This document shows positions 1,906-6,388 of a stretch of 31,582 bases of DNA, in pieces (position 1 is the first letter of the stretch; each line of letters starts with the position of its first letter). Source of the DNA: a bacterium. GTDB lineage: Bacteria > Patescibacteriota > Minisyncoccia > Minisyncoccales > GWA2-46-15. The stretch covers positions 1 to 31,582 of the forward strand of contig JAZDOL010000052.1 of assembly GCA_043798775.1 (NCBI GenBank). The letters are read 5' to 3'. A program made the translations under genes and the position numbers. Under the pieces are notes generated by a model. The model was not told the origin of the DNA and ran no database searches. It saw only the letters and a list, made by a program, of their open reading frames with translations.

Positions 1906-2072
1906 AGGCCAAGTCTGACTTGGCCTGCCATTCGAAGCATGACTTAATTTGAGTCCGTTCTTCGCCCTTTGGGCTTCGAAGGACCCTTCTTCTTTCTCTT
2001 AAAATAACCTAATTATTATTTATGTTGGCTCGCCCTTCGTAGCTCGACGTGTTAACGAAGAGCGAAGAAGGG
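1906..2072. repeat. Cluster of REP-like palindromes 3' of tRNA-Gly
   Basis: Perfect palindrome AGGCCAAGTC-T-GACTTGGCCT at 1906-1926. TTCGCCCTTTGGGCTTCGAAGG (~1961-1982) and CCTTCGTAGCTCGA...GAAGAAGGG (~2034-2072) are related to elements at ~3020-3075. Confidence 0.6.
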
Positions 2073-2144
2073 AGCGGGTGAGGGGAATCGAACCCCCGTA
2101 TCTTGATTGGCAATCAAGTGCACTAACCATTATGCTACACCCGC
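2073..2144 (-). tRNA. tRNA-Gly(GCC)
   Basis: Minus strand GCGGGTG-TA-GCATAATGGTTAGTGC-A-CTTGA-TTGCCAA-TCAAG-ATAC-GGGGG-TTCGATT-CCCCT-CACCCGC-T. Full cloverleaf, U73 discriminator, no complete encoded CCA. Confidence 0.96.
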
Positions 2145-2812
2145 GTTTGCGCTCCGCCAAAATATTGAGAAGCGAGACCAATCCAGATAAGGATTTTCTC
2201 TTTAAGTCCTCTACTCAATACACAAACTGTGCACATTCCGTGACTAACTTTCTTGCGAATCATTTTTCCCTTAATGAATTGAGTTTTCCAAAATTGTTCT
2301 TTAGGGATTCCGGTTTGTTCTCTCCAAAATTTATTGCAATCTTCCTCCGATAAATCGGGATAAAGAGTGGTACTTACTATTATTTTTTCCTTTGGAACTT
2401 TGCATATTTCTGACAAGAATCTGATAAACAAAGGCAACATTCTTTCGTCTGTATTCACCAGAGAAACTCTTCCGTTTTCAGCTTTTTTATCGCCTTCTCC
2501 CCAGTAAAGCATTATGCCGGTTATAAACAGAGGATTCGAAGCTAATTCCGGAAATTCTTCCATCGCTTCTTTTCTGTAGGATTCTCTCCATGCTGCCCAC
2601 TTTTGCTTGTTTTTTTCCGCCATTATTCTTATTCGTACATTTGTTTCAATTCTCGCCTTTGCGGTTAAAGTTTCTTTTGTTTTTTCGGACCATGGAACAT
2701 TTCTAAACCAGCAACCGATTGTACTTTTGGGTATGTTAAGTTTTTTCGATATCTCTCGATAGCTGTTCCCATTTCTTCTTAAAATAGTCGCTAACTCTTT
2801 ATCTTTTCTCAT
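2135..2812 (-). CDS. HTH + LAGLIDADG-like domain protein between tRNA genes
   Basis: N-terminal HTH (SYREISKKLNIPKSTIGCWF), then GIMLYWGEGDK, which resembles a single LAGLIDADG helix, followed by VSLVNTDERMLPLFIRFL. The stop codon lies inside the tRNA-Gly 5' end. Confidence 0.75.
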   Translation of the reverse strand: MRKDKELATILRRNGNSYREISKKLNIPKSTIGCWFRNVPWSEKTKETLTAKARIETNVRIRIMAEKNKQKWAAWRESYRKEAMEEFPELASNPLFITGIMLYWGEGDKKAENGRVSLVNTDERMLPLFIRFLSEICKVPKEKIIVSTTLYPDLSEEDCNKFWREQTGIPKEQFWKTQFIKGKMIRKKVSHGMCTVCVLSRGLKEKILIWIGLASQYFGGAQTRV

Positions 2813-2814
2813 GT

Positions 2815-2856
2815 TAGACCATTACTTATACATTTATAGTATAACACATTGGTCTA
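2815..2856 (-). promoter_or_regulatory. Extended -10 promoter enclosed by an inverted repeat
   Basis: Minus-strand TG-T-TATACT (hexamer at 2843-2838), flanked by TAGACCA (2815-2821) and TGGTCTA (2850-2856). Confidence 0.55.
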
Positions 2857-2875
2857 TTTGTGAAAGTTCATTTTT

Positions 2876-2951
2876 TGGTGCCGCGGGTCAGACTTGCACT
2901 GACGACACTATCTTTTTCAGAGATATGCTCTACTACCTGAGCTACCGCGGC
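2876..2951 (-). tRNA. tRNA-Phe(GAA)
   Basis: Minus strand GCCGCGG-TA-GCTC-AGGTAGTA-GAGC-A-TATCT-CTGAAAA-AGATA-GTGTC-GTCAG-TGCAAGT-CTGAC-CCGCGGC-A-CCA. CCA is encoded. Confidence 0.96.
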
Positions 2952-3088
2952 GTGTGTTGCGTTTGTATTAATGATAAGCAATGAATCGGGCGATTGCCTT
3001 GACTTAATATTGCTCGTCCGCCCGTAGCTCGAACGAAGCCCTCCTTCGCCAAGGCTTCGAAGGGTGAAGGGGAAGCTACCGCGGCGTG
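2940..3088. repeat. 15-bp direct repeat AGCTACCGCGGCGTG covering the tRNA-Phe 5' end
   Basis: Identical at 2940-2954 and 3074-3088, bracketing a REP-like palindrome. Confidence 0.8.
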
Positions 3089-3178
3089 ATAAGTTTTACT
3101 TGTTAAATGTCCAACGCATCGATATTTCATATAGACCCATTGATGCCTGTCCGCAGTAGTCCCGCTTAGCGGGACCGC

Positions 3179-3283
3179 GACATATTTTCGGTAGTTATCA
3201 ATGATAACTACCGATACCACAAAGAGCGTTACTAGGACATTTCTATCTTGCCCGCACTAGGACATTATCATATTGCCTCAACA
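3179..3283 (-). mobile_element. Orphan IS1202-family left end, exact 105-bp copy of 1099-1203
   Basis: Base-for-base identity from the terminal ACA through both subterminal repeats and the palindrome to the transposase ATG plus 2 nt. No transposase follows. Confidence 0.93.
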
Positions 3284-3347
3284 ATTTGTCGAGGGGCTTG
3301 CCCCGAGTGGATTCGACGAGCTCACCATTACAACTTTGTCGAAGGAG

Positions 3348-3421
3348 TGGGCGAAAGAGGACTCGAACCTCTGACCTCTTCTGTGTAAGAGAAGCGCTCT
3401 AACCAACTGAGCTACCCGCCC
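3348..3421 (-). tRNA. tRNA-Val(TAC)
   Basis: Minus strand GGGCGGG-TA-GCTC-AGTTGGTTA-GAGC-G-CTTCT-CTTACAC-AGAAG-AGGTC-AGAGG-TTCGAGT-CCTCT-TTCGCCC-A. No encoded CCA. Confidence 0.95.
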
Positions 3422-3460: not shown

Positions 3461-3500
3461 CAAAAAAGGAAAACGGGCAATATCACGAAGTGATATTGCA
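3461..3500 (-). terminator. Probable intrinsic terminator of the RT gene
   Basis: Perfect 10-bp stem GCAATATCAC/GTGATATTGC (3477-3499) with a 3-nt loop, followed on the minus strand by CCGTTTTCCTTTTTT. Confidence 0.7.
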
Positions 3501-3549: not shown

Positions 3550-5949
3550 TCAAGTTTTAAGAGCACGCGCCGTTGGCGCGAATCTTGGGTCCGTATTCCC
3601 AATATAGCCGAGAACCCTTCTTCTGGCAATAATTTTTTTTGTGTTTAAAGTAATTCTAACCAGATTAGCCAGGCCGTGATTATTATGCAATTCATCGTTG
3701 GTTAAACGGCGACGATCTCTAAGATGAAATCTTTTATACACGGCGACTCTTATCCTGTCGCATATATAGTCATCGAGTTGGTTAAGGAGGCGGAAATCGT
3801 TAATTCGGGAATAATACCTAATAAATGAATATTGCTGGTTTAAGGCGTATATCAGCCTGTTGATATAATTGATAATCTGGCGAAGGGTTCTTTTCTTATT
3901 TCTTTTTGTCAGTTTAACTATCTTTTTCTTAAATTGGGCAATATTGTATTGGTCAATGGTTATTAGTAATGGCTGGCCATCTTTTTTCTGAAACGAATAG
4001 CCAAGATATTCAACGGAAAAATTTTCATCATTATTTATGTTTGAATACCGTTTTTCATCCCATGCCATATTCAGCTTTTGAAGATAGAGGGCGAATTGGG
4101 TGATAAAGTTTTTATTATTCTTGTCGTAGATTATCAGAAAATCATCGGCAGTTCTTACAAACATTGCCGACAGCGGTTTTATGTAAGAATCGATTAGCGA
4201 CAAATATGTTTCCACGAGAATATTGTTTATCGGTGTACCCCGAGGCAATCCGGCAATGTTTGTTTCTAGAAGACGGTTGAACAAAGAACCGATTATCTGT
4301 TCAATATTACGGTTAACTGACACGCTCTGTAATATTTCCCGAATTATCCGGCGGTCTAGTCGTTCATGAACTCGGCCTAAGTCAATTCGCAGTAAACGAT
4401 AATTGTCTCTATTCTTGTTGAATAATCGCATCAAGCGAATTGCCGAACCAACCTTGCTATATACGCAATCATTTGCCATCAGTAGCTGTGGATATAAAAT
4501 TTTCTTCAAGTACAGATGCGTTGCCCGAAGAGCAATCTTTTCGTTGATGCTGTGGCTTATTATCGGTTTAACAGAGTGTCCGTTTAAATGAGTTTCAGAA
4601 AATGAAATTTGTTTATTTTTCAATAATTCAGACAAACGAATCGAATTCTCTTTTCGATTTACGAAGTACTCTTTCCATAGAGGAGAAGTTGTAGAGGGTC
4701 TAAAATAGTGGATAAAAGATTGTTCCAGCTCTTTGGGTGAAAATAGGCGATCAAAAAAGTTTTTTCTTAAAAGATGGGCCTTCTCCATTCTATGGAATAA
4801 GCAATGCGAGGAGATAAAACCGAAATTATGGAACAAACGATAGGGGGCTTGGCGAATAGCTCTTCCGCTCCACGAACCGGTAATCTTGTGGCGGATGTGG
4901 GAGACTAACCAATCATCGATCTTCGTAAACGGATAATCATTCCCGACTAATACAAAATATTTCATCCGGCTCTTAATTGGGCTTTCGGTTAAAAGATTAT
5001 TAATTTCGTAAAAAAAGAAACTGAATAGGTATCGATTGTCGCCAATACAGTTAAGCGATAACTTGCGGTAGGCTAACTTATTCATTATCGAAAGCAATCG
5101 TCGTTTAATTCTTTTAATCGTTGCTTCCTTGAAATTTATATTGCCATTCTTGAAATAGAAACCGATATAGTCAAAGCCATCTCTTGGCGAAAGTAATTTT
5201 GTCTTTTCTGAAGATAGCGTCAATTCTTGGTCGGATAGCTCTTTAGTAATGGTTCCCATTATCGGTTCGGGATTATTTTTCCCAATAAGAATAATATCGT
5301 CGCCGTACCGATAATAACAAATTGTTTTTTGATTCATATTCCGGTCGAATGGCAGTAAATAAAGGTTTGCTAAATCGTTAACCGGAGAGAGTCCCGTGGG
5401 AAGGCCGGGGCCGGAGAAATTAATCAATCTTTTGATTGTTCTTACGATATTTTTATCTAGGTCGCATTCTTTTCGCGCGTTGTCAACCATTTGCGACATT
5501 TTTTCCTTATTAATTGAGTCGTAGAAGCTTTTAATATCTGCTTTAATCGCCCATTCTCCCAAGCGGTTATCTGAAAAAGCGATTGCCGATCGAATAGCCC
5601 TTAGTATGCCGGCTGGATTATCTTTTTTCTTGCGATAACCGATAACATAGTCCGGCAACATCGGTCCGGTCTTTTCCAATAAGTATTGATGAAGATAAAT
5701 CAGGACCAGTTCGTCTTTCAATGTCGCGCTCTGATAAACAGTGCGATGTTTGCCGTTCTCTTTAGGGACGCGAAAACTTATAAATGGATAAAATTCATAA
5801 TCGCCACTACTTAATGGATCGATAACTTTATCGGTAAGATACTCGTCTTTTAGCGATAAAAAATCTTTGTGGTCGGGAAAAGAAAAAAAACGTTCCGGCT
5901 TGCCGTAAATTGATCTGATTATTCTATGAGCATTATCGATTGTAAGCAT
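3550..5949 (-). CDS. Tandem double reverse transcriptase (RT-RT fusion), group II-like palm and thumb in each half
   Basis: RT1 (aa ~1-395): VPKENGKHR, GYR, ADIKSFYDSI, GLPTG...ANLYL, RYGDD (5307-5296), FDYIGF and a thumb. RT2 (aa ~396-799): LFSPKELEQSF, RIDLGRVHERL, GLPRG...ETYL, RTADD (4152-4141), EYLGY and a thumb with LDDYICDRIR. Confidence 0.92.
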   Translation of the reverse strand: MLTIDNAHRIIRSIYGKPERFFSFPDHKDFLSLKDEYLTDKVIDPLSSGDYEFYPFISFRVPKENGKHRTVYQSATLKDELVLIYLHQYLLEKTGPMLPDYVIGYRKKKDNPAGILRAIRSAIAFSDNRLGEWAIKADIKSFYDSINKEKMSQMVDNARKECDLDKNIVRTIKRLINFSGPGLPTGLSPVNDLANLYLLPFDRNMNQKTICYYRYGDDIILIGKNNPEPIMGTITKELSDQELTLSSEKTKLLSPRDGFDYIGFYFKNGNINFKEATIKRIKRRLLSIMNKLAYRKLSLNCIGDNRYLFSFFFYEINNLLTESPIKSRMKYFVLVGNDYPFTKIDDWLVSHIRHKITGSWSGRAIRQAPYRLFHNFGFISSHCLFHRMEKAHLLRKNFFDRLFSPKELEQSFIHYFRPSTTSPLWKEYFVNRKENSIRLSELLKNKQISFSETHLNGHSVKPIISHSINEKIALRATHLYLKKILYPQLLMANDCVYSKVGSAIRLMRLFNKNRDNYRLLRIDLGRVHERLDRRIIREILQSVSVNRNIEQIIGSLFNRLLETNIAGLPRGTPINNILVETYLSLIDSYIKPLSAMFVRTADDFLIIYDKNNKNFITQFALYLQKLNMAWDEKRYSNINNDENFSVEYLGYSFQKKDGQPLLITIDQYNIAQFKKKIVKLTKRNKKRTLRQIINYINRLIYALNQQYSFIRYYSRINDFRLLNQLDDYICDRIRVAVYKRFHLRDRRRLTNDELHNNHGLANLVRITLNTKKIIARRRVLGYIGNTDPRFAPTARALKT

Positions 5950-5954
5950 AAGAG

Positions 5955-6103
5955 TGTTAGCACTCTAACGCAAGCAAATAGTGGTCTATTACCCGACAAG
6001 CGGACAAGTTCAGGCATCGCGCCCAATTTGCCTGAAAACTTATCGGGCTTTCGATTAAAGGCGCCCCTGAATCGCGCATAGATAAAGGGATAGAGTGCTA
6101 ACA
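5955..6103 (-). ncRNA. Putative RT-associated structured ncRNA (~149 nt)
   Basis: Perfect 13-bp terminal inverted repeat TGTTAGCACTCTA (5955-5967) / TAGAGTGCTAACA (6091-6103). Internal stems CGATT/AATCG, CCCGATAAG/CTTGTCGGG (a G-U pair favours the minus strand), TTCAGGCA/TGCCTGAA and AATAG/CTATT. It ends 5 nt before the RT ATG. Confidence 0.7.
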
Positions 6104-6109
6104 GCTGTT

Positions 6110-6118
6110 ATCATATCA
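6110..6118 (-). promoter_or_regulatory. Extended -10 promoter (TG-A-TATGAT) for the ncRNA-RT unit
   Basis: Minus strand TGATATGAT at 6118-6110. The expected TSS 6-7 nt downstream falls at ~6103-6102, the start of the 13-bp inverted repeat. Confidence 0.55.
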
Positions 6119-6123
6119 CATTG

Positions 6124-6269
6124 ATTATTTGGTATACCTCGCAGTCTCTCGGGTCTGAAACTCGGGATCGATGACTTGCCGCGAGGAACTAAATAATTAG
6201 GATTCCAAAGGAGGTCACTTCTTTGGTTACTCGGCAGGGTTTAATGCCCCGCTGAGCGAAACGCATTAA
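6124..6269 (+). other. Second structured intergenic element of unknown identity
   Basis: Nested stems ATTATTT/AAATAAT, CCTCGC/GCGAGG, AGTC/GACT and TCTCGGGT/ACTCGGGA. Separate hairpins CCAAAGGAG/CTTCTTTGG and TTAATGC/GCATTAA. G-U pairs in the first two hairpins favour the + strand. Confidence 0.45.
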
Positions 6270-6388
6270 AAAATTATAATTTACAATCAATGATTTAAGT
6301 GATAATCTTGGGTTGTAATTATTAGGATTTGTTTTCTTAAATCGAGGCGAAATAGCTGTCAAAACTGTTTCTATAAATCATTTTTCAA

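Follow-up and report, generated by a model that had tools for sequence, protein, structure and literature searches.

Directly upstream of a gene encoding two fused reverse transcriptase (RT) units, on the minus strand of a bacterial contig, an inverted repeat encloses a segment that the earlier note, made from the letters alone, had taken for a structured, retron- or DRT-like RNA and for the possible template or scaffold of a new RT class. The locus raises the questions of whether this RNA is real, whether it belongs to the RT-RT gene, and what the enzyme might use it for. Coordinates refer to the window, that is, the whole stretch of 31,582 nt that was analysed, unless another locus is named, and the features are collected in table 1.

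Fold and promoter of the upstream RNA

The 13-bp inverted repeat was recovered exactly as it had been described, with arms that are 100% complementary and enclose 123 nt. Dinucleotide shuffling produced an equally good stem, ending at most 30 nt from the RT start, in 1/2000 cases. The minus-strand RNA (6110-5950) folded at −56.7 kcal/mol, compared with −41.05 ± 3.52 kcal/mol for dinucleotide shuffles (z = −4.45; 0/200 as good), and the fold bore out the three hairpins, one of them long, that had been proposed. From 5' to 3', the elements are the basal stem P1, SL2, loop A, SL3, SL4, loop B and the P1 3' strand. The proposal that G-U pairing works on the RT strand only was also upheld, by the pairs G56-U113 and U62-G108 (numbering of the window RNA), with more such pairs in the same-genus relative (locus L002). 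Loop A GCGCCU (RNA 40-45) could form a pseudoknot with the SL3 apical GGGCGC (RNA 80-85; window 6023-6064), and the sole difference of L002 in this putative pairing, C to U, retains it as G-U.

The extended −10 element (tgaTATGAT, read from 6118 to 6110) is followed by a 6-nt spacer and then by the first base of the stem (6103), the alignment that the earlier note had pointed out. This element is absent from the output of a generic promoter scan because it has no −35 box. The base that follows the P1 5' arm is U (position 6090), not G. At the other end, 5 nt separate the P1 3' arm from the RT AUG (5949), and no terminator between the ncRNA and the RT ORF was found in the window; because of this short distance and the lack of an intervening terminator, a separately terminated transcript of ~150 nt is predicted to be unlikely. 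The sequence was matched in DNA metagenome runs only, and no RNA sequencing runs with the locus were found.

Just upstream of the ncRNA promoter, a structured spacer (6114-6288) consists of a dispersed repeat of ~170 nt, with 13 full or partial copies of 85-91% identity in the 785-kb genome. The repeat is missing at the corresponding site of the same-genus relative, and several lake-metagenome contigs match 6124-6227. In character it resembles a MITE or REP element more than a locus-specific regulator.

Table 1. Elements of the RT-RT locus in the window.
Feature	Position	Strand	Evidence and remarks
Extended −10 (TG-a-TATGAT)	6110..6118	−	Predicted start ~6103; identical in L002; equivalent box in nine loci
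Structured ncRNA, 149 nt, leader of the RT-RT gene	5955..6103	−	Fold z = −4.45; 83% identity to L002
P1 5' strand, UGUUAGCACUCUA	6091..6103	−	Inverted repeat, shuffles; U-A to C-G in L002 and lake-metagenome relatives
SL2, first hairpin (CCCU...AGGG)	6065..6089	−	Fold; variable apex, with most of the relatives' substitutions and indels
Loop A, 16 nt, single-stranded, GCGCCUUUAAUCGAAA, purine-rich end	6049..6064	−	One change relative to L002
SL3, long hairpin, CCCGAUAAG..UUCAGGCA..UGCCUGAA..CUUGUCGGG	5991..6048	−	Fold; base G-U then C-G
SL4, small hairpin (AAUAG ACCA CUAUU), directly 5' of loop B	5977..5990	−	Fold; counterpart CAUC-GCG-GAUG in L016
Loop B, 9 nt, UGCUUGCGU, UGC-U-UGC (A-B-A'), candidate template	5968..5976	−	Counterparts in L002 and L016
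P1 3' strand, UAGAGUGCUAACA	5955..5967	−	Inverted repeat, shuffles; stops 5 nt short of the RT AUG
RT1, N-terminal half, YGDD	4690..5949	−	PADLOC RT_UG17 3.3e-60, residues 40-412; Pfam RVT_1; confident AlphaFold model
RT2, C-terminal half, TADD, including stop codon	3550..4689	−	Scanned alone: UG17 83 bits, then Drt3a
Terminator-like hairpin 3' of the RT-RT gene	3477..3499	−	Terminator scan

Conservation of the RNA at RT-RT loci

In comparison with L002, identity was 83% for the RNA, 67% for the RT coding sequence and 29% further upstream, and the −10 element was identical. All predicted pairs were kept (47/47; three compensatory, seven one-sided changes to or from G-U), as was pairing at 13/13 substituted stem positions. 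Of the compensatory changes, two turn U-A into C-G (one in P1, one in SL2), and the third turns G-C into A-U (in SL3). When the partner was slid out of register as a control, paired cells dropped from 100% to 32-45%. Two-sequence covariation was equalled in 52/500 shuffles, in a test that has little power with only two sequences. Contigs from lake-water metagenomes, ~91% identical to the window, have both 5964 T>C and 6094 A>G, which is the same compensatory pair in P1, and their remaining changes lie mostly in the SL2 apex.

Conservation upstream of RT-RT homologues, which the earlier note had called for, was found throughout the family. A sigma-70-type −10 box, often TG-extended, the closing stem and the RT start follow one another in that order at 9/9 RT-RT loci, with the box 3-9 nt upstream of the 5' arm, a stem of 10-19 bp spanning 100-167 nt, and 0-24 nt between the 3' arm and the RT start. 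For each locus, 2000 dinucleotide shuffles were scored for a stem ending at most 30 nt from the start, and the Fisher-combined p-value was 1.4e-12 (5.5e-11 without L002). For this comparison the RT start of L013 was shifted 75 nt downstream (4001-4075 of that locus): the called start of its protein P0003 probably lies 75 nt too far upstream, the closing-stem 3' strand falls inside the annotated N-terminus of P0003, and an ATG preceded by AAGGA comes after the stem.

The closing-stem sequences vary by lineage around a common covarying core, GGCU[A/G]C ... G[U/C]AGCC. At seven loci the elements follow a common order: P1, a loop A with a purine-rich end, SL3 and then loop B. In these, loop A ends before SL3 in GAAA, UAAA, GAAG or UGAG, and the base of SL3 is always G-U followed by C-G, while the rest of its 5-11 bp stem base (9-11 bp except in L013) covaries; the 5' strands include GCCCGAUAAG, GCCAUUUAG, GCCUUAUUUU, GCAAGGGAAAG and GCCAGGGCC, each with a matching 3' strand. 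A short segment, often GUAAUAG-like, follows SL3. The evidence for covariation at family level comes from the stems of the individual loci and from a helix table compiled partly by hand, in which L018 and L019 were unfitted beyond P1. Aligning the nine RNAs with MAFFT gave nothing usable for consensus folding, and three further loci of the L014 type carry identical RNAs and added no covariation.

The other loci were searched with a covariance model whose only source sequences were the RNAs of the window and L002. In L014 (E = 5.6e-5) and L015 (E = 0.019), the best match of the model fell where the RNA had been predicted. In L020 the predicted spot scored E = 0.09 and an unrelated hairpin (4749-4789) marginally higher, and weak matches were obtained at the predicted spot in L013 and L018. 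In the window's own genome the model detected a single copy, and 150 further genomes belonging to its order gave no match. Scanning metagenomes with the pattern CAGGGGCGCCN{4,14}CGAAAGCC, which was too loose, returned more than 120 GC-rich chance matches, and the loci fetched from it encoded neither a relative nor the RNA. An Rfam search, which had been suggested for recognizing the element, gave no match at E-value or gathering thresholds. On the evidence of the close-pair conservation, the layout at nine loci and the placements of the covariance model, the RNA is a real, homologous, structured element that accompanies the RT-RT gene.

The fused reverse transcriptase and its surroundings

The RT-RT gene (ORF 3550-5949, minus strand) encodes 799 aa with YGDD at residues 215-218 and TADD at 600-603. 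The aligned part of RT1 covers profile positions 49-410 of the 429 in RT_UG17, and the next profiles are Drt3a, UG27 and UG26; the best profiles of the window protein thus all belong to class 2 groups. For RT2, UG38 was rejected as an identity because it reached 40 bits where UG17 reached 83, and UG8 too ranked behind UG17, the best match. The whole window protein scored 202 bits on RT_UG17 and its relatives 141-255 bits, compared with 418-427 bits for the true UG17 proteins P0012 and P0014. On the UG26 profile the family scored 130-274 bits, several members higher than on UG17. Judged by these profiles, the RT-RT family is a neighbour of UG17 and UG26 among the class 2 UG/Abi RTs and a member of neither, because its scores are about half those of true members. 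The RT is accordingly placed in no catalogued group, in keeping with the new class that had been proposed.

The AlphaFold model of the RT-RT protein had a mean pLDDT of 89.7 and a pTM of 0.77. Its top fold match in the PDB was DRT9 (9vma, E = 3.4e-13), followed by group II intron RTs, and no DRT10 structure was among the matches listed (PDB to April 2026). With a class 2-like fold and sequence, and with an RNA conserved at 9/9 loci, the locus belongs to the broad kind of class 2 UG/Abi RTs with a cognate ncRNA.

The fusion is rare. An exhaustive profile search of 1.84 billion representative proteins returned only seven at E < 1e-30, all of them RT-RT fusions of 740-858 aa, among which were proteins from one Anaerolineae MAG and one Deltaproteobacteria MAG, both annotated as hypothetical and 21-30% identical. 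The full-length fusion was present in just one of 100 related genomes, that of the same genus, whose protein is 64% identical to that of the window, and a word-based protein search found one close homologue only. The second RT motif is YADD in most members, TADD in the window and TVDD in L002, and is lost in one; both active-site motifs (YxDD in each half) are usually intact across the family. The ninth locus, L020 (555-2910), is a degraded copy with a frameshift in RT1 beside YADD and a stop between the halves, so that gene callers give three RT fragments; its upstream RNA is intact, with a perfect closing stem of 12 bp.

No SLATT or other conserved partner gene was found at the RT-RT loci, whose neighbours, taken from precomputed Pfam lists, differ at every one, and Pfam, PADLOC and NCBIfam recognized no SLATT among the downstream ORFs of the window. 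The window genome measures 785 kb at 97% completeness. MAGs of the Parcubacteria group and of Daviesbacteria are among the named relatives of its ArgRS, so that the organism is probably Patescibacteria-like. Its RT unit lies between a housekeeping YdjM-ZIP operon and a tRNA cluster, a placement shared with the same-genus genome. The tRNA genes directly downstream, on the same strand, are Val-tac (3347-3421), Phe-gaa (2876-2951) and Gly-gcc (2071-2144), and between them (2071-3421) are an HTH-containing ORF of 225 aa and an ORF of 92 aa. The nearest single-RT relative, P0009 (417 aa; locus L154, 1935-4254), is UG26/UG17-like and also scores below member level. A gap of 65 nt separates its gene from an upstream gene with weak resemblance to SIR2 (2.5e-10 and 38 bits for the best PADLOC match). 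An NTase-HEPN pair lies nearby, and this locus could be a defence-island version of a lineage possibly ancestral to the fusion.

No account of the RT-RT fusion or its RNA was found in the UG/Abi survey (PMC9226505), the 2008 RT survey, the 2021 review, Rfam, PADLOC or NCBIfam, and an RT-RT gene layout with an upstream RNA appears to be new, none having been found in the papers or libraries searched. The G2L1 and G2L2 classes were considered as precedents for tandem RTs and rejected, being CRISPR-associated instead.

Relation to known systems and proposed mode of action

The comparison with DRT systems made in the earlier note proved apt, since the nearest characterized family, UG17 (DRT10), uses an ncRNA that lies upstream, measures 137-143 nt and combines a basal stem with four to five further stem-loops (PMC12632851; 10.64898/2026.04.29.721553). 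The loop that serves as template in DRT10 follows a stem-loop towards the 3' end of this RNA, and its A-B-A' pattern lets the nascent DNA slip back, which yields protein-primed tandem-repeat DNA (PMC12632851; 10.64898/2026.04.29.721553). RT and ncRNA are present in a ratio of 2:1, with a pseudo-symmetric RNA that threads one loop through each protomer, and only one of the two protomers makes the long product (10.64898/2026.06.29.735271; 10.64898/2026.10.08.757509). The RT-RT locus resembles DRT10 in its upstream RNA of similar length (149 nt here, ~140 nt there) with a basal stem (13 bp) and several hairpins (three), in a candidate template loop that follows a hairpin and adjoins the 3' strand of the basal stem, in two RT units per RNA, through a 2:1 complex in DRT10 and through fusion here, and in UG17 being the best-scoring characterized family for both RT halves. 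It differs in the score of its RT on UG17 (202 bits, against ~420 for true members), in RTs that are fused and only 18% identical (RT1 against RT2), in having no SLATT or other conserved partner, and in a loop B that is partly conserved across the family, whereas the template loops of DRT10 vary.

Other systems share single features with the locus. Like DRT3 (Drt3a/UG3 and Drt3b/UG8 with an ncRNA), it combines two different RT units with one ncRNA, and Drt3a ranks second among the models that match the window protein; the NCBIfam Drt3a model gave 124 bits, against a cut-off of 200. However, the DRT3 RTs are separate genes of class 2 and class 1, whereas both halves are class 2-like here, and the DRT3 ncRNA lies at the 3' end with an ACACAC template, whereas the RNA of the window lies upstream and has no ACACAC. 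DRT9 (UG28 RT with an upstream ncRNA) is the best structural match and also pairs an RT with an ncRNA, its DNA product being the effector, but it is a single RT that forms hexamers and copies a poly-U template into poly-dA, and its profile reached 94 bits on the window protein. UG26 is the best or near-best profile for several RT-RT members (up to 274 bits); its proteins are single RTs of ~400 aa, and the RT-RT scores lie well below member level. No ncRNA or function was found described for UG26 in the literature searched.

Several other explanations of the upstream RNA were weighed. The one that fares best, still an unlikely one, would have the RNA act in cis as a 5' leader governing RT-RT expression, with the stem hiding the translation start, possibly under autoregulation by the RT, and with no template in the RNA. 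Such a leader would fit a 3' arm that lies so close to the start codon at all loci and the absence of a terminator before the ORF. Conserved loops, the G-U/C-G helix base and a multi-hairpin RNA of 100-167 nt nevertheless exceed what occlusion of a start codon needs, and in DRT2, DRT9 and DRT10 the structured upstream RNA is both template and scaffold (PMC12632851; 10.64898/2026.06.29.735271). A leader role and a template role can coexist.

Far less probable is a rolling-circle template as in DRT2, in which the stem would join the template ends and concatemeric cDNA would form a never-ending ORF (Neo-type). The locus likewise consists of an RT and an ncRNA with no effector gene, the 123 nt enclosed are a multiple of three, and the window RNA has one stop-free sense frame. 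That frame is not conserved, however, since each of the six frames contains a stop in L002, L014, L015 and L020, and Drt2 models scored low (74-91 bits; 74 against an NCBIfam cut-off of 390).

A retron msr-msd RNA closed by a1/a2 repeats, from which the RT would make branched multicopy ssDNA, shares with the locus an inverted repeat that closes a structured RNA directly upstream of the RT; it is a very improbable reading, and the earlier note was right to argue against a classic retron. The U after the 5' arm leaves no branching G, and there is no conserved G at that point in homologues; retron RT motifs and a conserved effector gene are lacking, Rfam gave no match, and retron models remained far below their cut-offs, with retron_St85_RT at 60 bits against 235, RT_Ec107-like at 55 bits against 202 for UG17, and all PADLOC retron RT models at 55 bits or less. 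The least credible reading, a group II intron remnant or variant with the upstream RNA as intron RNA, draws on an RT/maturase model at 157 bits, a weak GIIM match and group II RTs among the top fold matches, but this score falls short of the TIGR04416 cut-off of 300 bits, no Rfam group II intron RNA matched within the window, and the single-copy element has only 149 nt upstream with a promoter at its first base.

The RNA is thus probably the cognate ncRNA of an uncatalogued, DRT10-like, fused RT-RT of the class 2 UG/Abi type, for which it would serve as scaffold and template. The structure, conservation, strand and promoter placement of the RNA, its co-occurrence with RT-RT genes and the adjacency of the protein to UG17 and UG26 are directly supported. 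Carrying the DRT10 mechanism over to the RT-RT protein is an analogy, because the protein reaches about half the score of a UG17 member and has no SLATT.

Of the two segments put forward in the earlier note as candidate templates, UGCUUGCGU (loop B) survived as the best candidate and is plausible: it is unpaired, conserved and located between a hairpin and the P1 3' strand, the position of the template in DRT10. The other, UCCCUUUAUCUAUG, is an unlikely template because it lies within SL2, is partly paired and belongs to the most variable part of the RNA. Loop A is flanked by SL2 and SL3, loop B by SL4 and P1, and SL4 is a candidate template-boundary element. The counterparts of loop B are UGCUUGCU in L002 (also given as UUGCUUGCUU) and UGCCUGCCU, a 9-nt loop, in L016 (Anaerolineae); the A-B-A' pattern reads UGC-U-UGC in the window and in L002, and UGC-C-UGC in L016. 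Across the nine loci this pattern was not enriched over shuffles, with A of at least 3 nt at 6/9 loci (7.5 expected) and of at least 4 nt at 3/9 (2.6 expected). The idea that loops A and B encode complementary products was rejected, as no complementarity was seen by eye.

For the DRT10-like RT-RT system, the following course is proposed. Transcription would start at the extended −10 promoter of the ncRNA itself and run on into the RT-RT gene, so that the ncRNA forms the 5' portion of the transcript, with P1 enclosing the three hairpins and the two conserved loops. As the RNA of DRT10 does for its two protomers, this RNA may scaffold both RT halves. Loop B would be copied repeatedly through slippage between its two UGC triplets: UGCU would be copied and the product re-annealed on the downstream UGC, giving short tandem-repeat ssDNA of roughly (AGCA)n, probably protein-primed, for which tyrosines of the disordered C-terminal tail are candidate priming residues. 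Since there is no partner effector gene, the DNA product itself may be the active agent, as in DRT9, and phage defence is a plausible role. The simplest reading of the protein, from the profiles of its parts, is that both RT halves derive from one UG17/UG26-like lineage and form a fused, diverged dimer on one RNA.

A further step, more speculative and rather doubtful, would make the fusion of a DRT10-like homodimer a single-chain, permanently asymmetric double RT that works with one RNA and two loops, one per active site, the halves sharing the work with no separate effector. The suggested division of work follows from both active sites being usually intact; one half might make the long repeat and the other prime it or make a second product. 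If true, the system would count as a DRT class of its own, and its enzyme as a compact natural writer of repeat DNA.

Two diverged RTs from one lineage that were fused, kept one cognate RNA and lost, or never had, SLATT would corroborate the two-RT architecture of DRT10 on evolutionary grounds, and the RT-RT family would show how symmetry gets broken. With one gene and one RNA, the locus would be a directly testable system for repeat-DNA synthesis. It would also extend RNA-templated RT systems to ultra-small, apparently Patescibacteria-like genomes, in which each retained gene is notable.
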